Positions 32,277 to 42,898 of a stretch of 64,000 nucleotides of DNA are shown here, piece after piece (within the stretch, counting starts at the first letter, position 1; every line of letters begins with the position of its first letter). Made by a program: the position numbers and the translations under genes. A model generated the notes under the pieces. It made no database searches and had not been told where the DNA came from. It saw nothing but the letters and a program-made list of their open reading frames with translations. The stretch is from Pseudomonadota bacterium (lineage in GTDB: Bacteria; Pseudomonadota; Alphaproteobacteria; Rickettsiales; UBA1997). Location of the stretch: NCBI GenBank assembly GCA_018970485.1, contig JAGWWH010000002.1, positions 2,465-66,464 on the forward strand, in the 5' to 3' direction.

Positions 32277-33557
32277 ATGACTGACCAACTAAAACAAAAT
32301 ATTTTTGCTGCGGTTAACGAATATTGCTCTGCAAATCACAACTTTAATTTCGATCCAAAAAATCCGATTATTCGTTTGCACGAACCAACTTTTAGCGCCG
32401 AGGAAATCAATGCATTTCTTGAGCCAATGCTTACCACTCAAGTCACCATGGGCAGAGAAGTTCGTAAATTTGAAGAACAATATGCGAAGGAATTTGGTCA
32501 CAAATATGGCGTAATGAATAATTCCGGATCTTCGGCAAACCTTCTTGCCGTAGCTGCCATCGCTAATCCACAAACTAAAAATAATTTAAAAACAGGTGAT
32601 GAAGTTATTGTTCCATCTCTCTCTTGGTCTACAACTGTGTGGCCTCTCATTCAGAGTAATTTGATTCCCGTTCTAGTCGATTGCGATCCAAAAACTTTTA
32701 ATCTTGATCTCAATAAAGTTGAAGCCGCGATCACCCCAAAAACAAAAGCAATCATGCTCGTACACGTTTACGGCAACCCTTGCGATATGGATGCTTTGAT
32801 GGCGCTGGCAAAAAAATACAATTTACAGGTGATTGAAGATACCTGCGAATCAATGGGTGCATACTACAAAGGCAAGGCTGTGGGAACTTTCGGTCGCGTG
32901 GCAACTTTCAGTTTTTATTTCTCACATCACATCACAACTCTCGAAGGCGGAATCACTGTGACTGACGATTTTGAGCTCGCTGAAACCATGAGAATCATGC
33001 GCGCGCACGGTTGGACACGTGAAGCGGACGAACATGCAAAATATGTCGCCAAATATCCTGACATCGATCCACGTTTCATTTTCGTAAATCTTGGATACAA
33101 CTTGCGCCCTACAGAATGCCAAGCGCGCATGGGTCAGATTCAACTTCCAAAATTAGCTGGATTCGTCAATCAACGTCGCGCAAATGTCGCAACTTACTTC
33201 AAAAATTTGTCGAAATATTCCGACATTTTTGACTTCCAACACGAGACTCCGGAATCTCGTTCCAGCTGGTTCGGCTTCTCAATTATCCTGAAAGATAAAT
33301 GTCCATTCAAAGTAAAAGAAATTTCTGATTTCTTGAAAGCGCAAAAAATCGAAAATCGTCCGATCATTGCCGGAAATATCGGTTACCATCCAGTGATGAA
33401 AATGTACGAACACCGAATGGCCGGCGATCAAAGCGCTTCCAACAATATCATGAAAAATGGTTTCGCTTTCGGTTGCCATCAGGCGATGAATGAGGAAGCG
33501 GTGAACTATGTCTGCTCTAAGGTTGATGAGTTTGTGGCGAATTACAAAAAAAGCTAA
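32277..33557 (+). CDS. PLP/PMP-dependent sugar 3-dehydratase, ColD-like (DegT/DnrJ/EryC1 family)
   Basis: 426 aa, aligned by eye along most of its length with E. coli ColD as remembered (NSGSSANLL, EVIVPSLSWSTTVWP, IEDTCESMG, FSFYFSHHITTLEGG, RAHGWTRE, SSWFGFSII, ENRPIIAGN). His replaces the Schiff-base Lys. Confidence 0.8.
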   Translation: MTDQLKQNIFAAVNEYCSANHNFNFDPKNPIIRLHEPTFSAEEINAFLEPMLTTQVTMGREVRKFEEQYAKEFGHKYGVMNNSGSSANLLAVAAIANPQTKNNLKTGDEVIVPSLSWSTTVWPLIQSNLIPVLVDCDPKTFNLDLNKVEAAITPKTKAIMLVHVYGNPCDMDALMALAKKYNLQVIEDTCESMGAYYKGKAVGTFGRVATFSFYFSHHITTLEGGITVTDDFELAETMRIMRAHGWTREADEHAKYVAKYPDIDPRFIFVNLGYNLRPTECQARMGQIQLPKLAGFVNQRRANVATYFKNLSKYSDIFDFQHETPESRSSWFGFSIILKDKCPFKVKEISDFLKAQKIENRPIIAGNIGYHPVMKMYEHRMAGDQSASNNIMKNGFAFGCHQAMNEEAVNYVCSKVDEFVANYKKS

Positions 33558-33558
33558 A

Positions 33559-34563
33559 ATGACCAATAGCGCTAAAAAAATTACCGAAATTCTGGATTCA
33601 TTAAAGATTCCATTTTCGGGTAGCGCTATTGGATCCTACCACATTTCTCCCTTTCCTCAAGCTAGCGTTTCTGGAATCGGAGCCGTGCTTTATCGCGACA
33701 AAAAAACCAAAAAAATTTACACTTTGCTGCAACGTCGCTTCAAAGATAATTTTCAATGGTGGGTGGCTGGAGGTTACGTAGAGCTGCCTCCGCGCGATGA
33801 TTTTTTTACGAAAAATTTTCAGAAAATAAAAAACGCAACGATCGGCGAATATCAAAAAAATGCTGTGAAGCAAGGATGGCAGAAGGCTTACAAAGAAATT
33901 AACGATCCAAAAAAATTAGCAGAAACGCTCAAGAAACATAAAATTAATTGGCCGAAAGAAGTTGATTTTAATTGGCAATCAGCCTGGCAGCGCGAGGTCT
34001 TAGAAGAGACGGGAGTTGATTTGGATAAGTTTGCGGATCGATTAATTTTCGACTTAAACAGCAGTAAGACTCTGTCTGTCGGCGTTGAGCCGGATCGTCT
34101 CGTTAATATCGACGGAAAATTTTGTGCCTTTTTAGGTGATTTAGACAAGGCCCCCAAAACCACGCCAGACGAGGAAACTGAAGAGTTGCAATGGATTGCA
34201 CTTGAAGAAATTTCTTTCGATAAAAAAAATTTTGTCGCGCGCGGAAAATCAGTAAATCTTTACACTGTGGCTTTGATTGAAGAGGGATTATTCAGAACCA
34301 TCTGCCACAAAATTCAGGAAATTTCCAAAATCATCAATCCCGTCACCAAGCAAGAAATATCACGCTTTAACACTCCGCAGAATCTACAAAGTTTTTTGAT
34401 TCTTAATCCAAAAATTAAGCGCACTAAAGAGATCAAAGAATTTTTAGCTTGGGAATTTGGCGAGTTGGAAATTGGGAAGAGTCTGTGTGGGAGAGATGGT
34501 GATAAATTATACAAAATAACACTGATTATTTCTAGATACCTCAAATCCACTTCCACTTTTTAA
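33559..34563 (+). CDS. Nudix-like hydrolase with split Nudix box
   Basis: 335 aa from ATG 33559, 1 nt after the upstream stop. The sequence WWVAGGYVE ... (69 aa) ... REVLEETGV matches the two halves of GX5EX7REUXEEXGU separated by an insertion. Confidence 0.5.
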   Translation: MTNSAKKITEILDSLKIPFSGSAIGSYHISPFPQASVSGIGAVLYRDKKTKKIYTLLQRRFKDNFQWWVAGGYVELPPRDDFFTKNFQKIKNATIGEYQKNAVKQGWQKAYKEINDPKKLAETLKKHKINWPKEVDFNWQSAWQREVLEETGVDLDKFADRLIFDLNSSKTLSVGVEPDRLVNIDGKFCAFLGDLDKAPKTTPDEETEELQWIALEEISFDKKNFVARGKSVNLYTVALIEEGLFRTICHKIQEISKIINPVTKQEISRFNTPQNLQSFLILNPKIKRTKEIKEFLAWEFGELEIGKSLCGRDGDKLYKITLIISRYLKSTSTF

Positions 34564-36055
34564 ACAACCTCCTTCTCAACTCTTCATTGATCTCAATCAT
34601 ATTTTTGTAAGGCTTGGGAAACTTAACCAAGTTACGAAACGGACCTCTTCTCGATGAGTTGATGATGTAGTAATAAGAATGATGCCTAAACACCCTTATA
34701 CTCTCCCACTCAAGAATTTTCTGACAAATAATTTGTTTATATCGCCGAAAATCCGAAGTAAGAAACCCGTCTACTAAACCCCTTAGAAAAAAATCGGTTA
34801 TTCTGTATCGCCTTCTGGTTTTAATTTTCTTGTCACATTCATTTGCGATATAACTTAATAAGCTAGAAGCATTCTTTCGCGAGGAATACAGCTTTAGCAC
34901 CGTCTCTTTTGCTTTAAGCCTCATTTCATCTATAGTATTTCTTTGATCAATTATTCCGATCACTACTGAAACTAATTGCTCAGTTAACGCCCCTTCTAAT
35001 GCCAAATAATTCTCAACATCTGACTTTAATAACGACACCTCATCCCGAAACACTGCCTTCTTAACGCCCTTTAAAACAATACCATTATTCAAATGGTCAA
35101 CATATTGATCAGTTCCTACGGTATCAGTAACTATGGGTATCGCCCCACAATACATCGATTTTAATATACTCATTGAATGCAACTGCGCCGACGGCAATAA
35201 GAAAAAGTCCGCCATCTTGTACAGCACATTCATTTCATGATCCGATAAATATTCTTCATACCAAATAATCGATTCACAACTGTAGATAAAATCAACCTGC
35301 GCATCACTTAAACCCATACACAAAAAATCCAGTCTAGTAAGTTTGATACACTTAAAAACGAATTTAACTTTATATCCCGATTCGATCAATTTTTTGGCTA
35401 GATTAATAGTAACTTTGAAGCCCCTGGTAACATAGTTATTGGTGTTTTGATGACCGGATGAGGTAAATAAAAAAATTGTCTCTTCCGGGTTTTTATGAAA
35501 GTTCTTCAAACTATCAGCAGCTTTGGTAAAACTACTCGAAACCGCAATTCTACTGTAATGAAGTTTGGAATTGATTATCGGACTACCGAAGTAATTTCGA
35601 AAACTTTGCAAGGTTTCGGGAATGTGAGAAACAACAGCCAAACAACTCTCTTGCTCAAAAATTTTTTTTAGATCCACATCTTTCTTGAAAACCGTCAATG
35701 TATCTCGATGCAAAAAAATACTCTGAAAATCTTCGAGGTGAAAAACAAATGGATCTCCCCCGTTGGCAAATATCGGAGAAGTGTGGAGCAGTTCTAAATC
35801 ACAAAAAGAAGAGCCGATTTTGTTCAGCAAATACGAGACCGAAGATGACCTATTGTAAGATTTGAAATCCATCATCCGCCTAACGAAAAAAGCGAAAAAT
35901 CTCAAAATCTTTTTACCATAAAACCTTTTTAATTTTAACGCCTTAAATTCAAAAAAATCACCCTCCTCTAGAAGAAAATCATATAAATCATGAAAACCAT
36001 TAGAGGCATAATATTCCGGCAGATTCCACGGCAAAAATATTTTTAATTTTCTCAT
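34541..36055 (-). CDS. glycosyltransferase, GT-B (GT1/GT4-like)
   Basis: 504 aa from ATG 36055 (ATGA overlap with the upstream gene). The C-terminal half has the GT-B pattern FLLPSAQLHSMSILKSMYCGAIPIVTDTVGTDQYVDHLNNGIVL. Confidence 0.55.
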   Translation of the reverse strand: MRKLKIFLPWNLPEYYASNGFHDLYDFLLEEGDFFEFKALKLKRFYGKKILRFFAFFVRRMMDFKSYNRSSSVSYLLNKIGSSFCDLELLHTSPIFANGGDPFVFHLEDFQSIFLHRDTLTVFKKDVDLKKIFEQESCLAVVSHIPETLQSFRNYFGSPIINSKLHYSRIAVSSSFTKAADSLKNFHKNPEETIFLFTSSGHQNTNNYVTRGFKVTINLAKKLIESGYKVKFVFKCIKLTRLDFLCMGLSDAQVDFIYSCESIIWYEEYLSDHEMNVLYKMADFFLLPSAQLHSMSILKSMYCGAIPIVTDTVGTDQYVDHLNNGIVLKGVKKAVFRDEVSLLKSDVENYLALEGALTEQLVSVVIGIIDQRNTIDEMRLKAKETVLKLYSSRKNASSLLSYIANECDKKIKTRRRYRITDFFLRGLVDGFLTSDFRRYKQIICQKILEWESIRVFRHHSYYYIINSSRRGPFRNLVKFPKPYKNMIEINEELRRRLFKKWKWI

Positions 36056-37023
36056 CTTATCACCCCTTCGGCCTCGCCCCAAATCCTAAAATGCTCTTCC
36101 GGAAATCTGGCTCTGGATGCGATCTCATTATAGTTTTGTAGATAGTTCCCATAAAAAATGCCACTTTCTCTTAAATAAGATGAAACTTCATTGAGATTGC
36201 TCAAACCCACTCTGGCATAGAAATTACCACTACTCTCGCCTGGTAATTGATCCTCAATTGAAACCGTCATCTTGCCAAGCGATAGTGCTAATATTATACG
36301 CAAGATCGATGGATATTTCCAATTCTCATCCTGAGGAATATTTAAATTAATCTTTGCCTTGGAGATAAGTTGATTTCTCTGTCTGCGATTTAATATTTTT
36401 TGATAAGCGTTGTCCTTCACGGAGAAGGACATCATCCTAAGCCCTTCTATTATTCTCGATCTGTACTTAGTATCTCTGCCAGAAAAGATTAGATCACATT
36501 CCATATTGTCACCAACATCAACTTTCTTTATTTGCGGATAGGGTATCATTATAGGGGTCTTGCTAATCATTTCACGAAAATTTTTTAATTTCGGATATTC
36601 GCCAAGGGTAAATATGTACTTAATGTATGGAGATAGGGTAAGAAGCGACAAGATCCTTTGTTTCACAGCCGGATTATAGTGAGTCTTATCAATCCTACCT
36701 AGCGGAACAGAATATGCGTGTATTATGTTGTCGATATAATCTATGTGTTCCGTCATAATTACTGCTACCTTCTTACCCCTGCTTTCACAATAATTTATTA
36801 TCCTTTCAACATCGCCAGGCTTCTTTTTTTGAATTCTTTTTGAGCTTTCATCAAAACATTCTATTAAAATATTTAACGCATCATCCCTAAATTCACCGCC
36901 AATTGATAAGTTATATCCACTTTGCTTAAAGGACGCCTTCATGAATTCCAGCTGATCAACAACGTAGCTAATATCAGAAATGTTAAATAGACAAAGATGC
37001 GCTTTCACTGGTGGAGCATCCAA
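36052..37023 (-). CDS. hypothetical protein, possibly CgeB/DUF3880-like glycosyltransferase
   Basis: 323 aa with an uncertain TTG start. The weak pattern ISKAKINLNIPQDENWKYPSILRIILALSLG resembles CgeB-type GT C-termini. It lies between two GT genes. Confidence 0.4.
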   Translation of the reverse strand: MDAPPVKAHLCLFNISDISYVVDQLEFMKASFKQSGYNLSIGGEFRDDALNILIECFDESSKRIQKKKPGDVERIINYCESRGKKVAVIMTEHIDYIDNIIHAYSVPLGRIDKTHYNPAVKQRILSLLTLSPYIKYIFTLGEYPKLKNFREMISKTPIMIPYPQIKKVDVGDNMECDLIFSGRDTKYRSRIIEGLRMMSFSVKDNAYQKILNRRQRNQLISKAKINLNIPQDENWKYPSILRIILALSLGKMTVSIEDQLPGESSGNFYARVGLSNLNEVSSYLRESGIFYGNYLQNYNEIASRARFPEEHFRIWGEAEGVIR

Positions 37024-37042: not shown

Positions 37043-38338
37043 TTACCGACACGATAGTATTACCGCCTTGTCAAGAACACCCTTAAATTTCTTGTTCCAA
37101 TTTTCTATTGAGAACTCCTCTTTTAGGACATCCAAAGAGGCTAATTGATACCTCAATAGCATATCCCTGTCCTCAACAAGTTGAATTATATGTTGCGCCG
37201 CTTGGGTATAAACATCCTTATTAGGAAAATTGGCCAGTTTATAATCCTCTTGAAACATACCATCACTATCAAAGTAACCACTTTTGCCGCTCCATCCTTT
37301 AGCTACCAACCCATTGACTCCATGTTTAACATATTCGTCTATACCAAAACCATCGGCGGTCACGATGGCGCAAGAATGATTCATCGCCTGTAATAAAGTT
37401 GTCACAGCCAACCTGATAGCTGGAAATAACAATATATCGCTACTACCATATAAATTATCTATCTCCTCAATTGGAAGCTTCTTATCCAAAATATATATCT
37501 CTGGATTATCATAAATCATGTCCAGGTGCCTTCTACTGAGATCATTAGGAATTGGACACCTTAAGCGTAGCGTAACATTATTCGGCTTCTTGCTACTAAC
37601 TATATTAAACGCTTCCAGGGCATCAATTAGTCCGCGTCTAGCTAAAGCACTAGGATCCTGTGACCATCCGGACATAAATAAAATATTCACCTTCTCGTTA
37701 TTATTCTTCCTAGCTCGTGCCGGAAAATTTCCTACTTTTCTTCCGAGTGGTATTGAAGAAATTTTCTCAGCTACGCCCAGAGAATCTTTGAATAATGTCC
37801 TTAGACCTTCCGCCGTGGAATCTAGGTGCGATAGTATACCGACGCACTCTTTTTCCATAAACAAAACTTCCATGATTTTTATTATCTGCCTCGATGACTT
37901 ATCTAAGCTAATTAGAGAGCCATGATTAATATGAGGCAGCATAGGGGTAAACATATCTTCAATCTCAACAATCCAAGAATGATTAGGTATAAAGAACAAA
38001 GCGGATGGATATATTGCAATGGTATCGCGCCCAGGAATAATTCTTTCAATTTCTTGCCACTTTATCTCTCTGGATTTCCAAAAACGTTTTATATACCTAA
38101 ATCTGACTCCATTAAGTAAGAATTTGATACTATATCTGACTATACAAAATAACGCATTCAACCTAACGACTCTATTCTTAAAAAATGCAGCCACACCTCT
38201 ACTTTTAACATTTGGTAGTCTTTCTATGTAATAACCATCCGGGGGATATTTCGTGAACTGAAACACTGGATGGTTACCAAGCTGATACCTCAAGAAAACA
38301 CTCATCCATCCATGATAGAAAATTTTACGTTTTTTCAT
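37043..38338 (-). CDS. glycosyltransferase, GT-B (GT4-like)
   Basis: 431 aa. C-terminal pattern: ILLFPAIRLAVTTLLQAMNHSCAIVTADGFGIDEYVKHGVNGLV. Confidence 0.6.
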   Translation of the reverse strand: MKKRKIFYHGWMSVFLRYQLGNHPVFQFTKYPPDGYYIERLPNVKSRGVAAFFKNRVVRLNALFCIVRYSIKFLLNGVRFRYIKRFWKSREIKWQEIERIIPGRDTIAIYPSALFFIPNHSWIVEIEDMFTPMLPHINHGSLISLDKSSRQIIKIMEVLFMEKECVGILSHLDSTAEGLRTLFKDSLGVAEKISSIPLGRKVGNFPARARKNNNEKVNILFMSGWSQDPSALARRGLIDALEAFNIVSSKKPNNVTLRLRCPIPNDLSRRHLDMIYDNPEIYILDKKLPIEEIDNLYGSSDILLFPAIRLAVTTLLQAMNHSCAIVTADGFGIDEYVKHGVNGLVAKGWSGKSGYFDSDGMFQEDYKLANFPNKDVYTQAAQHIIQLVEDRDMLLRYQLASLDVLKEEFSIENWNKKFKGVLDKAVILSCR

Positions 38339-38363: not shown

Positions 38364-39479
38364 TCATTCTTTGATAGACTCGATACAAGACTTTATCTTG
38401 TATCTATCAGTGGTTGTGAGTTCTTTACTAAAAAACTCAAATAAACTCTCTGCCGCCATCTCTAAAGTCAGATTCCAATCATTGGCCGCTCCACCATCAG
38501 CACCATCGGTTATATATTTGATACACAAAAAAGGGATTTCTTCAGCCTTACAAATTTTAGCTAGAGCGTAGGATTCCATATCAACAAGATTGTAAGCTGC
38601 ATCTTTATTTGCTGAAGTATCAAAACTATCGCCAGTGCCACAAATTCCCTGTTTTAGGCCATTAATAGTATCTCCATATCGCAAAATCTGCTCATCGCCT
38701 TCATCAAAGGGAGTAACATATTTTTTAAATCCAAGACCACTCGCATCCATATCCCTCTGAATAAAACCAATACAATTTATCAGTTCACCTTTATTAAAAA
38801 CCGCACTTCCCGCACTGCCTAAATTCAATACTAATTTCGGCTTCTTTTTATTGATCGCTTTCATCAAAGCGTAAGAGGCATTCGTTTTGCCAACGCCGGT
38901 GTAGATAACATTTTCCTTTGCGAAATATCCCTGACATTCGCTCTCTAAGGCCATGACGATCAAGATGTCATTGTCGTAATATTGAATTAGGGATTTTGCC
39001 TTAAGGCCCTGCCAAGAAAAATTATTGAGGAATTTTAGATCGAGCAAAACCGCAATATCCAAAACATCGTAACCAGCTCTTTTACAAAGATTCGCGGCGG
39101 CGGCGAGAGTCCCACCAGTTGCCAAAACATCGTCGATTATGATCACTCCACCGCTACCTGGAGACATCTCAATCTCGGCAGTTCCATATTCCAAAGAATA
39201 TTTTTCGGAGACGGTTGGAGGTGGTAATTTTCCGGCCTTGCGGATCATGATAAATCCTTTGCCCAGATGCTGCGCTAAGGCAGATCCAAAAACAAATCCT
39301 CTCGAATCGATGCCGGCGATGTAATCTGTTTTATCGAGAATTTCTTTATCAAAAAGCGCGGCGAAAGCGCTAATGGTTTCTCTAAGTTTTTCTTTCAGCA
39401 AAGGCGAAACATCTTTGAATGTGACACCTTTTTTCGGAAAGTCTTTGGTATCGACTATGTAACGCTCTAAATCCTGCAT
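38364..39479 (-). CDS. fusion protein: adenine phosphoribosyltransferase (N) + MTA/SAH/5'-deoxyadenosine nucleosidase-like (C)
   Basis: The N-terminal half has Apt motifs (DTKDFPKKGVTFKDVSPLL, GIDSRGFVFG, VIIIDDVLATGGT). The C-terminal half has MtnN/Pfs-like motifs (TGVGKTNA, NLGSAGS, GTGDSF, VDMESYA, YITDGAD). Confidence 0.8.
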   Translation of the reverse strand: MQDLERYIVDTKDFPKKGVTFKDVSPLLKEKLRETISAFAALFDKEILDKTDYIAGIDSRGFVFGSALAQHLGKGFIMIRKAGKLPPPTVSEKYSLEYGTAEIEMSPGSGGVIIIDDVLATGGTLAAAANLCKRAGYDVLDIAVLLDLKFLNNFSWQGLKAKSLIQYYDNDILIVMALESECQGYFAKENVIYTGVGKTNASYALMKAINKKKPKLVLNLGSAGSAVFNKGELINCIGFIQRDMDASGLGFKKYVTPFDEGDEQILRYGDTINGLKQGICGTGDSFDTSANKDAAYNLVDMESYALAKICKAEEIPFLCIKYITDGADGGAANDWNLTLEMAAESLFEFFSKELTTTDRYKIKSCIESIKE

Positions 39480-39481
39480 TA

Positions 39482-41002
39482 TTAATCGCCCAAAATTCTT
39501 CTTTTAACTTTGATTTGTGTTGTGCTTGCAACATTTTCTCTAGCTCTTGGGCCAAATTTAGATTCAAGCATCGAGAGATATTTCGGACTAGTGTGAACAT
39601 CCATCCAAGCCTTGTCTCTAAAGCCCAAAATCTGTGCGTTAGTTAAGTGATCGTTTGATAGATTTAGAGTCTCGTAAGAGTGCTGACTATAACCTTCATA
39701 TTTCTTCGGAAGTTCCCATCCCTTCTTCTTCGCAGTTAAGTGAAGTGGGCTTCCAGGATAGGCCATCGCGGAATAGAAGTTGATCATTTCGGTCGGATTT
39801 TCCAAAGCAAAATCCAAAGTATCCTGCATTGATTCCATTGTATCCATCGGCAAGCCAAAAATGTAATTTCCAGCAACGTTGATCCCGGCATTTTGGATAT
39901 CGCGAATCACGTCGAGAATTTTAACTTCTTGGAATCCGTCTTTGTGAACTTCGCCTCTGAGCTTAGTATTTGGATTTTCGATTCCGAGCGCGAGCCAATT
40001 CACACCTGCTTTCTTGAGAGTTTCTAGATATTTAGGTTTGCAAGTATCGATGCGAGAATATGCCCAAATATTGAAGCCGTAATTTCTTTCGATGAGCATT
40101 TCGCAAATTCTCATGAAGTGCTGTGGACTCAATACGAAAAGCTCGTCAGCGATCTTGATATTTTTCACGCCCATCGCCGCGATTTGATCGAATTGCTTGA
40201 TGATGAATTCAGGATTCCACCATCTGAACTTATTGCTATCCGCACTTGAAATATCTGCGCCCTGCTCGGTTCTGCTGATGATGTTAATCATGCAGAAAGA
40301 ACATTTATTTGGGCAGCCGAGACTGGTGTAAATTGAAGCGAATGGAGCTTTGTCAGAATTATTTGACCAAGAGTGCCAACCAGAAGTTCTGTATTTGTTG
40401 ATGTTTGGCAATAGATCCCAAGCCATTCCAGGCAAATCGGTTTCTAGATTTTCTCTCGCAACGATCGGAGAAATTTTATTCAAAATCACGTTGCCGTTAA
40501 TTTTAAAACCTAAGCCGCCAACTTTTTTCAGCTGAGTTTCATCTTCTAAATCTGTGACCTTAAGCAAATCGCTGATAGTATAAACACCTTCATTTTGACA
40601 GATCATGTCAACCGATGGTTCGGCTAAAGTTTCATAAGGAAGCGCTGAAGCGTGAGGGCCGACGAATAAAATTTTTGAATCTGGAGCGAGCTCTTTAAGC
40701 TTGTCTGCAGTCTCAACAGCGCCAGACATGTTTTGCGATGATGAGCTTGGTTGCTGTCCGTAAACTACGATACAAACGATTCTCGCATTAGCTTCTTTGA
40801 TCTGTTTTGCAGATTCATCGGTATCTAATCTTTCTGCTTCGCAATCCAAAATTGCAGTACCGAAACCTAAACTTCTGCATCTATTTGCCAACATAGCTGC
40901 CCAGATTGGCGGCTCAATTGCAGAGTGATCCGCACTAAGAGATTGATATATTTTTTTAGCGCCATTTGGTTGGACAAAAAGTATGTCTAATTTTTTTTGC
41001 AT
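39482..41002 (-). CDS. B12-binding-domain radical SAM enzyme (class B)
   Basis: 506 aa. It has an N-terminal Rossmann-like cobalamin-binding domain (ILFVQPN..., IVCIVVYGQ) followed by the CX3CX2C motif in SLGCPNKCSFCMI. Confidence 0.85.
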   Translation of the reverse strand: MQKKLDILFVQPNGAKKIYQSLSADHSAIEPPIWAAMLANRCRSLGFGTAILDCEAERLDTDESAKQIKEANARIVCIVVYGQQPSSSSQNMSGAVETADKLKELAPDSKILFVGPHASALPYETLAEPSVDMICQNEGVYTISDLLKVTDLEDETQLKKVGGLGFKINGNVILNKISPIVARENLETDLPGMAWDLLPNINKYRTSGWHSWSNNSDKAPFASIYTSLGCPNKCSFCMINIISRTEQGADISSADSNKFRWWNPEFIIKQFDQIAAMGVKNIKIADELFVLSPQHFMRICEMLIERNYGFNIWAYSRIDTCKPKYLETLKKAGVNWLALGIENPNTKLRGEVHKDGFQEVKILDVIRDIQNAGINVAGNYIFGLPMDTMESMQDTLDFALENPTEMINFYSAMAYPGSPLHLTAKKKGWELPKKYEGYSQHSYETLNLSNDHLTNAQILGFRDKAWMDVHTSPKYLSMLESKFGPRARENVASTTQIKVKRRILGD

Positions 41003-41112: not shown

Positions 41113-41991
41113 ATGAAAGAAATCTACAACGATCTTCCAGTGGGAAAACAGCAAGAATTTATGAGAAACTTTTTTGAAACAAAAAGTTTTATCCAAGAAA
41201 AATTTGGCGCAGATAGCCTCAATTTAGAAGAAAATTTCTACACCAAACAACTGCGCAACTATTTCGATTCAACGATCAAAAAACGCCTAAATATCGGATT
41301 CGATAAATTAGAAAATATTCACAAAAGCGTAGATGATCAACTTACCTCTTACGACTTCGATTACGGTATCAATGGCATAACCAAAGCCTTATACGACATG
41401 GACGAAGAGTTCGTTTCAATTTATCACGACTTCATCAAAAACTGGATCGGTAAAAACATCGCCGACGGAAGAAAATTTTGGTTTCAAAAAACTCCTACCA
41501 TTCGAGTTCACTGCCCAGGAGCAAATTCAAAAACCGTTTATCCAGCATATCACAACGATACTTTTCTAGGTCATCATCCTTACGAATTAAATATTTGGAT
41601 TCCATTGACCTACCTAGGAAATGAAGGCCACGGCTTTGATTTGATGGACGTAAATGAATCGAAAGAAATTCTAAAGCCGTATGATTTTGATATTTTTAAG
41701 TACTACGCAGAAGTAAGAAATCACAGCAGCCAAGCATTCAAGGTAACCAGCGAAAAAGCTAAGCCAGTAACTACGGAGTTTGGTCAAATTTTATTGTTTG
41801 ATGTCAGATCACTTCACAGCACTATGCCGATGCATCAACAAACCCGCGTCTCGATGGATGTTAGAATTATTTTTGATGAAGATAAAAATAATCATCCCTT
41901 TGCTCACACCGGACTTGGCAGAATGAAAACACCTTTTGAGCCCGGAGCTTATTACCACGAAAAAGCCGTGCAGAACTCTAGCTTCGCATAG
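41113..41991 (+). CDS. putative non-haem Fe(II)/2-oxoglutarate oxygenase (PhyH-like)
   Basis: 292 aa. A candidate H-x-D (AYHNDTF), a distal His and an Arg (LFDVRSLHSTMPMHQQTRVSMDVR) match the facial triad and 2OG-binding Arg spacing. This is a weak call made by eye. Confidence 0.45.
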   Translation: MKEIYNDLPVGKQQEFMRNFFETKSFIQEKFGADSLNLEENFYTKQLRNYFDSTIKKRLNIGFDKLENIHKSVDDQLTSYDFDYGINGITKALYDMDEEFVSIYHDFIKNWIGKNIADGRKFWFQKTPTIRVHCPGANSKTVYPAYHNDTFLGHHPYELNIWIPLTYLGNEGHGFDLMDVNESKEILKPYDFDIFKYYAEVRNHSSQAFKVTSEKAKPVTTEFGQILLFDVRSLHSTMPMHQQTRVSMDVRIIFDEDKNNHPFAHTGLGRMKTPFEPGAYYHEKAVQNSSFA

Positions 41992-42898
41992 ACGCCTTCA
42001 AGAGGTAGAATAGAAATTTAGCGGCACCATTCTCTTTGATACCCAAGCCGAAGTTCCTTTTGGCTTCTGAGAAATTTTTGAATTTGAGGTGCCGCTTCAC
42101 CAATTTCGCACGATATTTCTTCACCCATTTTCTAAACTTTTTTTCCCAGGTTGGGTTTAGCAAATACCTAAATTCATCACTTAAAAACCTTTGAGCGATC
42201 AGAACTTTATCTTCGATGTAGATTGGGTTTTCTTTGTAGCCACTGGAGAAGCTATTCGATTTTTCGCTAAGCAAATAATTGTAGCCCACCTCATCCACGA
42301 CAAGATTGCGGACATTATTTAGAATTAATCTGATCAGTAATTCTGTATCGTTACTAAGAAATGACTGTCCAGCTTTGATGGTCTTTAATGGCAGACCATA
42401 TTTTAGAAATACGTCCTTCTTAAAAAATTTCGCATTAATACCGAGGCAAGCGCAGTCTTTGTTTTTATCAAGCTCAACATCTAGTGTGGTGCTCTCTTCC
42501 ACCGTCGCATATTCATTATTTTTAAGCTCCACAACTCTATATCTAAATGATGCCACATCTAAATTTTGATCTTGCTGGAACAACCTTCCCACCTTCAACA
42601 AAACGCCATCTTCATAAAAATCATCCGCATTTAAATAACCGATAATTTCTCCATTCGATAATCCCACCGCTTTACTATAAACCTCTGAAGCGCCTTGATC
42701 ATTTTCACTTTTCCAGAAGGAAATTTCTTTCTCGTATTTTTTGATAACATCAAGAGTTCCATCGACAGAATTACCATCCAAAATGATATATTCGAGGTGA
42801 GGATAACCTTGTGCAATAACGCTCTGAATCGCTTTTTCTATTGTTCCCGCAGAGTTTTTAACGACCGTGATAATTGTGATTTTTGGTAAATTATTCAT
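41978..42898 (-). CDS. glycosyltransferase family 2
   Basis: 306 aa. N-terminal GT-A pattern: ITIITVVKNSAGTIEKAIQSVIAQGYPHLEYIILDGNSVDGT, then NADDFY. Confidence 0.8.
   Translation of the reverse strand: MNNLPKITIITVVKNSAGTIEKAIQSVIAQGYPHLEYIILDGNSVDGTLDVIKKYEKEISFWKSENDQGASEVYSKAVGLSNGEIIGYLNADDFYEDGVLLKVGRLFQQDQNLDVASFRYRVVELKNNEYATVEESTTLDVELDKNKDCACLGINAKFFKKDVFLKYGLPLKTIKAGQSFLSNDTELLIRLILNNVRNLVVDEVGYNYLLSEKSNSFSSGYKENPIYIEDKVLIAQRFLSDEFRYLLNPTWEKKFRKWVKKYRAKLVKRHLKFKNFSEAKRNFGLGIKENGAAKFLFYLLKASMRS

Follow-up and report, generated by a model that had tools for sequence, protein, structure and literature searches.

Why should a gene that joins adenine phosphoribosyltransferase (Apt) to an MTAN-type nucleosidase lie directly behind the gene of a radical SAM (rSAM) enzyme, inside a glycan island of an alphaproteobacterium? 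The earlier note on this DNA had read the pair as a dedicated module for removal and salvage of by-products. We followed this reading through the whole stretch of 64,000 nucleotides (the window; Table 1), the genome from which it comes, the genus and the wider protein families. What had been observed in the sequence was confirmed, and the interpretation was partly supported: that the fusion protein, P0001, is a bifunctional enzyme disposing of a SAM by-product has, in our judgement, an even chance of being right.

Table 1. Features of the cassette and its island edge, in positions of the window.
Feature	Position	Strand	Length	Basis
DegT-family aminotransferase/dehydratase-like and Nudix genes	32277..34563	+		PF01041 317 bits, PF00293 32 bits
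GT1-like glycosyltransferase P0005, conserved cassette member	34541..36082	-	513 aa	PF00534 27.5 bits
GT-B-like glycosyltransferase P0004	36052..37023	-	323 aa	57% identical to P0245 residues 360-677
GT1-family glycosyltransferase P0003	37043..38338	-	431 aa	PF13692 31 bits
Apt-MTAN fusion ORF P0001	38364..39479	-	371 aa	
C-terminal tail of P0001	38364..38417	-	17 residues + stop codon	sequence read directly; P0245 alignment
Predicted short-form MTA/SAH/5'-deoxyadenosine nucleosidase domain, P0001 residues 168-354	38418..38978	-		PF01048, PDB matches, fold
Predicted adenine phosphoribosyltransferase domain, P0001 residues 1-167	38979..39479	-		NF002636, PRPP motif
B12-binding-domain rSAM enzyme P0002, first gene of the pair	39482..41002	-	506 aa	PF02310, PF04055, CPNKCSFC
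Conserved hypothetical protein, divergent from the rSAM gene, cassette member	41113..41991	+	292 aa	
GT2 glycosyltransferase, cassette member	41978..42898	-		PF00535 72.8 bits

P0001 is indeed a single reading frame, and profile scores recognise both of its domains, Apt followed without any linker by a short-form MTAN-type nucleosidase. The Apt half scored 54 bits against PF00156 and 123 bits against solved APRTs, and it passed the NCBIfam Apt equivalog NF002636 (176.8 bits, cut-off 125) while staying under the stricter cut-off of TIGR01090 (145.2 against 185.85 bits). Its PRPP motif (VIIIDDVLATGGT), DSRGF and the SLEYG loop (KYSLEYG) align with human APRT, and it is 45-55% identical to stand-alone Apts. 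Judged by equivalog score and motifs, this half is a bona fide Apt domain with predicted catalysis.

The nucleosidase half scored 60 bits against PF01048 (cut-off 25.1). Among its 38 PDB sequence matches there are only MTA/SAH or aminofutalosine nucleosidases, led by Brucella 4PR3 (70 bits), and an AlphaFold model of this half only, built from the nucleosidase alignment A2 (pLDDT 84), had MTANs for all of its top 50 PDB fold matches (TM 0.72-0.82). When the domain is aligned with E. coli Mtn, the counterparts of Ala8, Glu12, Ala77-Gly78, Phe151, Met173, Glu174 and Asp197 are invariant, and the position of Ser76 holds Ser in P0001 and Thr in one relative; we take the catalytic and substrate-binding roles of these residues to be those of E. 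coli Mtn. Both motif sets are therefore intact, as had been claimed, and the MTAN fold and catalytic residues agree with the description of this half as a full MtnN/Pfs-type enzyme, but with one qualification. The domain belongs to a short MTAN subfamily of about 190-205 aa in which the beta-hairpin after Glu12 is missing, and it stays under every NCBIfam MtnN equivalog cut-off (PRK05634 77.9/129, TIGR01705 72/152, NF004079 59/169, TIGR01704 32/73.8). By these scores it is a short-form relative rather than a canonical MtnN equivalog. Compared with E. coli MtnN/Pfs and Apt, P0001 shares the folds, the conserved catalytic residues (Glu12, Met173, Glu174 and Asp197 equivalents; PRPP loop) and the same two predicted consecutive reactions, nucleoside to adenine to AMP. 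In E. coli these are separate housekeeping enzymes, whereas P0001 is one polypeptide, its nucleosidase is about 40 residues shorter than E. coli Mtn and 24% identical to it, and its gene is accessory, situated in a glycan island and coupled to an rSAM gene. Closer in type is Brucella melitensis 4PR3, the top Foldseek match by E-value (29% identity, TM 0.72), which is of the same short alphaproteobacterial type but, unlike P0001, stands alone; as no substrate profile of this enzyme has, to our knowledge, been published, its specificity is not transferable to P0001.

Strong purifying selection acts on both halves: against sister alleles dN/dS was 0.03-0.07 for Apt and 0.09-0.10 for the nucleosidase. 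A pseudogene or decaying gene is ruled out by these values (0.03-0.10 over both halves).

The upstream partner, P0002, matched PF02310 (50.1 bits) and PF04055 (65.7 bits), both above the cut-offs, and carries CPNKCSFC as its CxxxCxxC core, so that, at the level of domains and motif, its assignment to class B was borne out. The fusion starts 2 nt after its stop codon, as had been noted (minus strand: ...GGC GAT TAA ta ATG CAG...), and neither terminator nor promoter signals were seen at this junction. The profile search gave no NCBIfam equivalog match for P0002; HpnJ, the best NCBIfam match, reached 132 bits where the cut-off is 577. The nearest solved relative is AprD4 (PDB 6FD2, 53 bits), which is non-methylating. 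A class-wide search for orthologues returned just 40-46% identical homologues, in large genomes.

The glycan setting was likewise upheld, the surroundings of P0001 being an island with glycosyltransferases, DegT, ThDP enzymes and heptose genes. Within it the cassette runs GT2, hypothetical gene, rSAM, Apt-MTAN(-GT-B), GT1, Nudix, DegT. In sister cassettes the GT2 gene is 73-83% and the hypothetical gene 73-89% identical, and P0005 is 58-64% identical across all of them; the hypothetical protein has no significant Pfam match, with a faint 2OG-FeII_Oxy_3 at E 0.059. The DegT and Nudix genes form a conserved island edge common to congeners without the cassette (orthologues at 88-98% in seven congeners; loci L159-L163). 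A binning artefact is ruled out, since the left flank of the island, CstA-DegT-Nudix, is found in synteny, at 91-98%, in the congener G020.

P0001 is the sole Apt and the sole PNP_UDP_1 protein in the 97.6%-complete genome (G000), so that the check for a separate apt or mtnN, proposed in the earlier note, turned up none; P0002 is the sole B12-binding-domain protein found there. PNP_UDP_1, true Apt and the P0002 rSAM were each found in none of the 43 congeners, i.e. the other species of the genus. The case against the module that had been foreseen, namely that the fusion is simply the organism's housekeeping apt/mtnN, is countered by the finding that these species have neither. The cassette is truly absent and not just unassembled, because the assembled islands of four congeners keep the DegT/Nudix edge without it. 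The Apt-MTAN gene is thus accessory and not lineage housekeeping.

At least seven further metagenomic variants of the cassette, with rSAM at least 90% identical, were found, and in all of them Apt-MTAN lies directly 3' of the rSAM gene (cassette lineage: G000, L021/22, L029, L114, L164, L165/166, L167). This order is kept although the upstream genes vary between variants, and although recombination has replaced the segment from the nucleosidase to the glycosyltransferase (the nucleosidase is 74-81% identical, as against up to 97% for Apt). Within the cassette lineage the linkage is invariant, and we infer that it is functional rather than historical. We note separately that the whole cassette co-varies, and co-occurrence does not single out the rSAM enzyme as the partner, an observation that speaks against the clean-up reading.

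The commonest form of the gene is a triple fusion of roughly 680 aa, Apt-MTAN-GT-B glycosyltransferase, while in this genome a GT1 gene has been inserted in the linker; both the triple fusion as the common form and the insertion are new here. The alignment of P0001 with the 681-aa P0245 stops at residue 354, and the remaining tail corresponds to the start of the linker into the GT-B domain of the sister proteins. The inserted gene, P0003, was found in this genome's version only, between nucleosidase and GT-B module, and it has no orthologue in sister cassettes, just 21-28% matches to the other GT1. Beyond it P0004, homologous to the third domain of the sister proteins, has no Pfam match, and its ESM Atlas look-alikes are Glyco_trans_1_2 / T4 glucosyltransferase-like (score 0.97, TM 0.74-0.77). 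As a side observation, fusion of a GT-B domain to a pure clean-up enzyme is not what the clean-up reading predicts.

Outside this lineage the picture is different. About 43 loci with rSAM orthologues of 59-72% identity contained no apt, short nucleosidase or E. coli-type MtnN in flanks of up to 8 kb, and none of 80 short-nucleosidase loci had a B12-rSAM within 10 kb. Fusions of Apt and PNP_UDP_1 arose independently at least five or six times, in both domain orders; besides P0001, PNP_UDP_1 + Pribosyltran fusions are P0007, P0008, P0011, P0273, P0288, P0298, P0316, P0346 and P0357. They follow the same metabolic logic, an adenine-releasing enzyme joined to Apt, but differ from P0001 in their independent origins, often opposite domain order and long-form PNP_UDP_1. 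Informative flanks were those of P0007 and P0011, in which no rSAM was found; the contigs of P0288 and P0273 are under 2 kb. The search for architectures and neighbours that had been proposed therefore showed the fusion to be rare, though not unique, without extending its rSAM link to these contexts, and the linkage does not extend to the rSAM family, the nucleosidase family or other Apt/nucleosidase fusions. Since only one narrow lineage shows it, the linkage amounts to about a single evolutionary event. The statement that the architecture was not known as a described one holds for the literature searched, which left most subscription journals outside, and in which neither the Apt-MTAN fusion, the P0002 rSAM family nor the roughly 680-aa Apt-MTAN-glycosyltransferase architecture was found, but it must be read beside these other fusions. 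The idea of a dedicated by-product module fares similarly: sole copy, absence from 43 congeners and invariance in the cassette lineage are in accordance with it, while the missing pairing in the about 43 rSAM and 80 nucleosidase loci is not.

What the fusion would act on can be approached through the metabolic context. AhcY is present in the genome. The searches turned up no LuxS and no spermidine synthase (SpeE), nor, at 97.6% completeness, the MtnA/DrdI isomerase (PF01008) and class II aldolase (PF00596) of the DHAP shunt or 5-deoxyribose salvage. This combination points to 5'-deoxyadenosine as the relevant substrate, the by-product without another known disposal route in the genome, which has eight rSAM genes, seven besides P0002. 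In the proposed mechanism the short-form MTAN domain would cleave the N-glycosidic bond of 5'-substituted adenosines by hydrolysis, its main substrate being 5'-deoxyadenosine, the predicted stoichiometric product of the rSAM enzyme whose gene ends 2 nt before that of the fusion; if P0002 is a cobalamin-dependent methylase, the domain would act on SAH as well. The Apt domain would then convert released adenine and PRPP to AMP, and since no 5-deoxyribose route was found, adenine alone would be recovered. The cassette would deal with its by-products itself, the host genus being without MTAN, MTAP and Apt. We infer this choice of substrate and the benefit to the rSAM enzyme from the genomic setting. 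It is known, according to a passage of PMC6079011 citing Choi-Rhee and Cronan 2005, that rSAM enzymes are inhibited by 5'-deoxyadenosine and that MTAN lifts the inhibition. MTAN and APRT have also served in an in vitro system that regenerates SAM for a class B rSAM methylase (bioRxiv 10.1101/2022.09.26.509380). In that engineered cascade the same two activities clear 5'-deoxyadenosine and SAH and return adenine to the AMP/ATP/SAM pool for a cobalamin rSAM, but as separate enzymes with kinases and SAM synthetase and not as a natural gene arrangement. The congeners presumably run a similar housekeeping rSAM set without MTAN, and therefore the nucleosidase is not strictly required.

P0001 could also be a generic salvage unit for adenine, MTA, 5'-deoxyadenosine or adenosine from any source, fixed beside the rSAM gene by linkage and not by function; we regard this as possible but rather unlikely. 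In relatives of the same order (G033, G029) and in the Rickettsiales MAG L104, apt and nucleosidase are an ordinary adjacent pair, the same genes in the same order, 46-54% identical and 3-11 nt apart or overlapping, which is likely the kind of precursor from which the fusion arose. These pairs are unfused and lie in non-glycan contexts (speD/speE, efflux genes, Tol genes) with no rSAM near; one pair in the same-order relatives sits beside speD/speE, genes whose pathway yields MTA. A generic role is further in accordance with the nucleosidase half, which shows no special divergence, hundreds of stand-alone homologues matching it at about 50% identity, with the repeated origin elsewhere of two-activity fusions lacking rSAM neighbours, and with the 59-72% rSAM orthologues that do without Apt-MTAN. 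It is harder to reconcile with the retention of Apt-MTAN right after the rSAM gene in all variants, even though recombination has taken place within and around it, with 43 congeners that live without any such salvage, and with its fusion to the cassette glycosyltransferase in most variants. That last feature, as the dominant natural form, would instead suit an enzyme of the glycan pathway, whose nucleosidase strips adenine from an adenosylated sugar (cf. HpnG, MqnB) or supplies a 5-deoxyribose-type unit for GT-B while Apt recycles the adenine, a role we consider improbable. The hopanoid side-chain pathway joins a nucleosidase (HpnG), a glycosyltransferase (HpnI) and a B12-rSAM (HpnJ), the same three enzyme classes as this locus, and HpnJ is the best NCBIfam match of P0002. 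That a nucleoside by-product of SAM can enter a surface glycan has a precedent in the methylthioxylose cap made from MTA (PMC11127046). Still, a hopanoid-type system was rejected: HpnG (29.8/187 bits), HpnJ and HpnH (18.9/225 bits) are far under their cut-offs, and neither HpnH nor squalene-hopene cyclase (SQHop_cyclase_C) was found in the genome. The nucleosidase moreover falls among short MTANs of housekeeping type and retains the equivalent of Glu12, which activates the water, the rSAM orthologues of about 43 other clusters lack a dedicated nucleosidase, and neither a kinase nor a nucleotidyltransferase to activate 5-deoxypentose was found in the cassette core.

That the adenosyl moiety itself is a building block seems to us very unlikely. 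Here MTAN would de-adenylate either 5'-deoxyadenosine from the rSAM enzyme or an adenosylated sugar intermediate, so that a 5-deoxyribosyl or ribosyl-extended unit is passed to the GT-B fused to it in most variants and into a surface glycan while Apt recycles adenine; the sole analogue of such sugar supply known to us is found in mycobacterial lipoarabinomannan, whose methylthioxylose cap derives from MTA. We give next to no credence to the PRT domain being, instead of an adenine salvage enzyme, a PRPP-dependent glycan phosphoribosyltransferase that installs ribofuranose in polysaccharides. Such enzymes do occur in polysaccharide loci (PMC11127046), and here a PRT domain lies in a glycan cassette and is glycosyltransferase-fused in sister variants. 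The domain nevertheless passes the Apt equivalog cut-off, has its close identity to stand-alone Apts and is fused to an adenine-releasing enzyme, and the HAD phosphoribose phosphatase domain, a marker of such systems, was not found in the cassette core.

If P0001 does dispose of a SAM by-product, this would be a natural biosynthetic cassette with its own handling of cofactor by-products, and the radical SAM step could work in a reduced genome without MTAN, MTAP or Apt. It would then be advisable to co-express the fusion when reconstituting glycan-tailoring B12-type rSAM enzymes, a large uncharacterised family, or producing them in a foreign host. A known 5'-deoxyadenosine nucleosidase or phosphorylase was found in none of the 43 congeners, which raises the question of how they dispose of 5'-deoxyadenosine. 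For biochemistry, the roughly 680-aa Apt-MTAN-glycosyltransferase protein offers a simple target.

The stop codon of the B12-binding radical SAM (rSAM) gene and the start codon of the Apt-MTAN fusion gene are separated by only two nucleotides on the minus strand (GAT TAA ta ATG). A pattern scan placed no terminator-like site at this junction, and promoter-like matches over the whole region were below the count in shuffled sequence. The rSAM protein possesses a B12-binding domain, a radical SAM core and the motif CPNKCSFC, and it is the sole B12-binding-domain protein of the genome (G000).

Genes of the rSAM/Apt-MTAN region and their positions in the window
Feature	Coordinates	Strand	Source
B12-binding rSAM (P0002), 506 aa	39482-41002	-	ORF listing
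Apt-MTAN fusion (P0001), 371 aa	38364-39479	-	ORF listing
GT1 glycosyltransferase (P0003)	37043-38338	-	
GT-B-like glycosyltransferase (P0004)	36052-37023	-	

The Apt domain of the fusion (residues 1-167) matches PF00156 with 54 bits, the NCBIfam Apt equivalog NF002636 with 176.8 bits (cut-off 125) and solved APRTs with 123 bits, and its PRPP loop, DSRGF and SLEYG loop are all in place. It is followed, essentially without a linker, by the nucleosidase domain (residues ~168-354; PF01048, 60 bits), for which all 38 matches in a PDB sequence search were MTA/SAH or aminofutalosine nucleosidases, with Brucella 4PR3 ranking first. The positions that correspond to Ala8, Glu12, Ala77-Gly78, Phe151, Met173, Glu174 and Asp197 of E. 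coli Mtn are invariant in the alignment with that enzyme, and the Ser76 position is Ser or Thr. The AlphaFold model of this half (pLDDT 84, pTM 0.84) has only MTANs among its top 50 PDB matches (TM 0.72-0.82). The nucleosidase is a short form in which the hairpin after Glu12 is missing, and it scored under every cut-off of the NCBIfam MtnN families. Domain scores, aligned residues and junction sequence thus confirm the observation of the earlier note that an Apt and an MtnN-type nucleosidase with intact motifs are fused and start 2 nt past the rSAM stop.

Of the clusters similar in length, only four among 5.8 billion clustered proteins combine both domains, and a HMMER search run exhaustively over 1.84 billion representatives gave one full-length cluster match, whose representative is 680 aa long. 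Independent fusions were scattered through the same HMMER search, both in the Apt-then-nucleosidase order (P0008, P0011 and P0357) and in the opposite one, the latter with a short-form nucleosidase domain in P0007 and long-form domains in P0273, P0288, P0298, P0316 and P0346. Apt domains were also seen fused with HEAT repeats, a PRPP-synthetase-like N-domain and a zinc-ribbon domain (P0358, P0368, P0360, P0383). Stand-alone short nucleosidases of about 50% identity are present in more than 500 species, mostly Bacteroidota; at the best 80 of these loci no B12-rSAM homologue was found within 10 kb, and apt adjoins the nucleosidase in one, a Rickettsiales MAG. The two other Apt/nucleosidase fusions with informative flanks likewise had no rSAM gene nearby. 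The fusion is rare, and the association with rSAM genes extends neither to these fusions nor to the 80 nucleosidase loci. Relatives from the same order carry apt and the nucleosidase gene side by side but unfused, in ordinary contexts. In one of them (G029, locus L019, C81, 1816-4592) the pair has speD (SAM decarboxylase) and speE (spermidine synthase) as divergently oriented neighbors, so that genes producing MTA adjoin genes disposing of it. In the tree the island nucleosidase is placed beside a Lentimonas sequence, a position that does not point to a particular donor. The closest stand-alone nucleosidase is encoded on a Lentimonas-labelled contig, and directly upstream of its gene lies a 2.4-kb AT-rich stretch (L034:7524-9989) that is almost devoid of ORFs and contains a transposase-like remnant and a cold-shock gene.

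The rSAM protein belongs to a very large, well-conserved and unnamed family with thousands of members of 59-72% identity in aquatic metagenomes. At this identity no apt, short nucleosidase or E. coli-type MtnN was found in the flanks of 38 metagenome and five further loci (the survey included L115-L152); DegT and E1-like (E1/transketolase-like) ThDP genes were neighbors in 28 and 23, respectively, of the 47 loci scanned. At rSAM identity of at least 90%, Apt-MTAN is directly downstream in every locus (L021/22, L029, L114, L164, L165/166 and L167). The gap is 2-17 nt except at L164, where the two genes are 175 nt apart and a 36-aa ORF is called in the spacer (L164:6522-6695).

In all these sister cassettes the gene encodes a protein of 676-681 aa, in which an Apt-MTAN portion 76% identical to that of the window (354 residues) continues into a domain that shares 57% identity with P0004, so the dominant form is a triple fusion. 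P0004 is without a Pfam match; its ESM Atlas look-alikes and structural neighbors belong to the GT-B glycosyltransferases (Glyco_trans_1_2 / T4 glucosyltransferase type). The GT1 gene is situated in the window between the nucleosidase and the GT-B module, where sister fusions have a linker, and the arrangement gives the impression of a former fusion that was broken up when this gene was inserted. Only with a TTG start at 37023 does P0004 keep its first beta-strand; in the ESM Atlas record the start is an ATG 27 residues further on. The N-terminal residues of P0004 correspond to the linker found in the sister fusions. The conserved cassette core consists of GT2, a divergent hypothetical gene, rSAM, Apt-MTAN-GT-B, a GT1 of about 500 aa, Nudix and DegT, with variable genes upstream. 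These are known enzymes in a rare, mostly triple, fusion that is fixed in a mobile rSAM glycan cassette.

The glycan island extends from about 32 to 60 kb of the window, with G+C slightly under that of the flanks, and contains two DegT genes, a Nudix gene, GT1, GT2, GT10 and GT61 glycosyltransferases, two ThDP enzymes, a GDP-heptose gene set and epimerases. A binning error as its origin was rejected: the CstA-DegT-Nudix flank recurs at 91-98% in the congener G020, so the island belongs to this genome. The DegT gene of the island edge is present in seven congeners (88-98% identity). Four of these, G020 not among them, have well-assembled islands which keep DegT and Nudix, whereas the rSAM gene, the E1 fusion, Apt-MTAN and all three glycosyltransferases are missing, so the absence of the cassette is not just an assembly gap. 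Among the 43 other species of the genus, neither a PNP_UDP_1 protein, whether MTAN or MTAP, nor an orthologue of the rSAM protein was found, and nothing resembled Apt past a PRPP-motif-level match of 20-31 bits. Its own genome (1.58 Mb, 97.6% complete) encodes no Apt and no PNP_UDP_1 member other than the fusion. The objection raised in the earlier note, that the fusion could be the organism's sole housekeeping apt/mtnN, is thus correct as to copy number, but the fusion is not a housekeeping gene of the lineage.

SAH already has a route in this genome, since the hydrolase AhcY is present (448 bits). LuxS, spermidine synthase, MtnA/DrdI isomerase and class II aldolase were not found there, nor was any polyamine source of MTA. 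Eight radical SAM genes are present, seven of them housekeeping ones besides that of the island, and congeners presumably have a similar set. Judging from gene presence and absence, 5'-deoxyadenosine appears to be the SAM by-product without another recognizable disposal route, and only its adenine would be recoverable.

The best supported explanation is that the fusion hydrolyses 5'-deoxyadenosine, possibly SAH too, that the released adenine would be converted to AMP by the same protein, and that the fusion accompanies the rSAM cassette since these activities are missing from the host lineage. Radical SAM enzymes are inhibited by 5'-deoxyadenosine, and a nucleosidase relieves the inhibition (PMC6079011). 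A cascade of MTAN and APRT was engineered that sustains a class B rSAM methylase in vitro (bioRxiv 10.1101/2022.09.26.509380). The nearest solved relative of the island rSAM protein is the non-methylating AprD4; SAH would be among its products only if it is nevertheless a methylase. The proposal of a dedicated rSAM by-product module is partly supported: the invariant pairing with close rSAM relatives and the non-housekeeping nature of the fusion speak for it, while at the more distant rSAM loci the pairing does not hold. We give this clean-up role about an even chance, because the linkage amounts to roughly one evolutionary event, the cassette co-varies as a unit and congeners manage without the nucleosidase. 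The main rival, a generic salvage unit kept beside the rSAM gene by linkage, we regard as possible but rather unlikely. A role in the pathway itself, in which the nucleosidase would strip adenine off an adenosylated intermediate or furnish a 5-deoxyribose unit, would explain the glycosyltransferase fusion, and the MTA-derived methylthioxylose cap (PMC11127046) is a distant precedent for it; such a role is nevertheless improbable, as the nucleosidase is of housekeeping-type appearance, hopanoid-type enzymes are absent and other clusters of the rSAM family have no nucleosidase.

Between alleles dN/dS is 0.03-0.10 in both halves of the fusion, which indicates that both are functional. At the two sister loci with the fusion alleles L114:9524-11563 and L029:7578-9623, identity to the window is 97% for the rSAM and for the Apt half (Apt dS 0.37-0.39), 79-81% for the nucleosidase half (dS 1.3-1.4) and 58-66% for the glycosyltransferases. 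The jump in divergence points to a recombination breakpoint near the domain junction, inside the fused gene. Recombination notwithstanding, a nucleosidase allele is retained in every version of the cassette.
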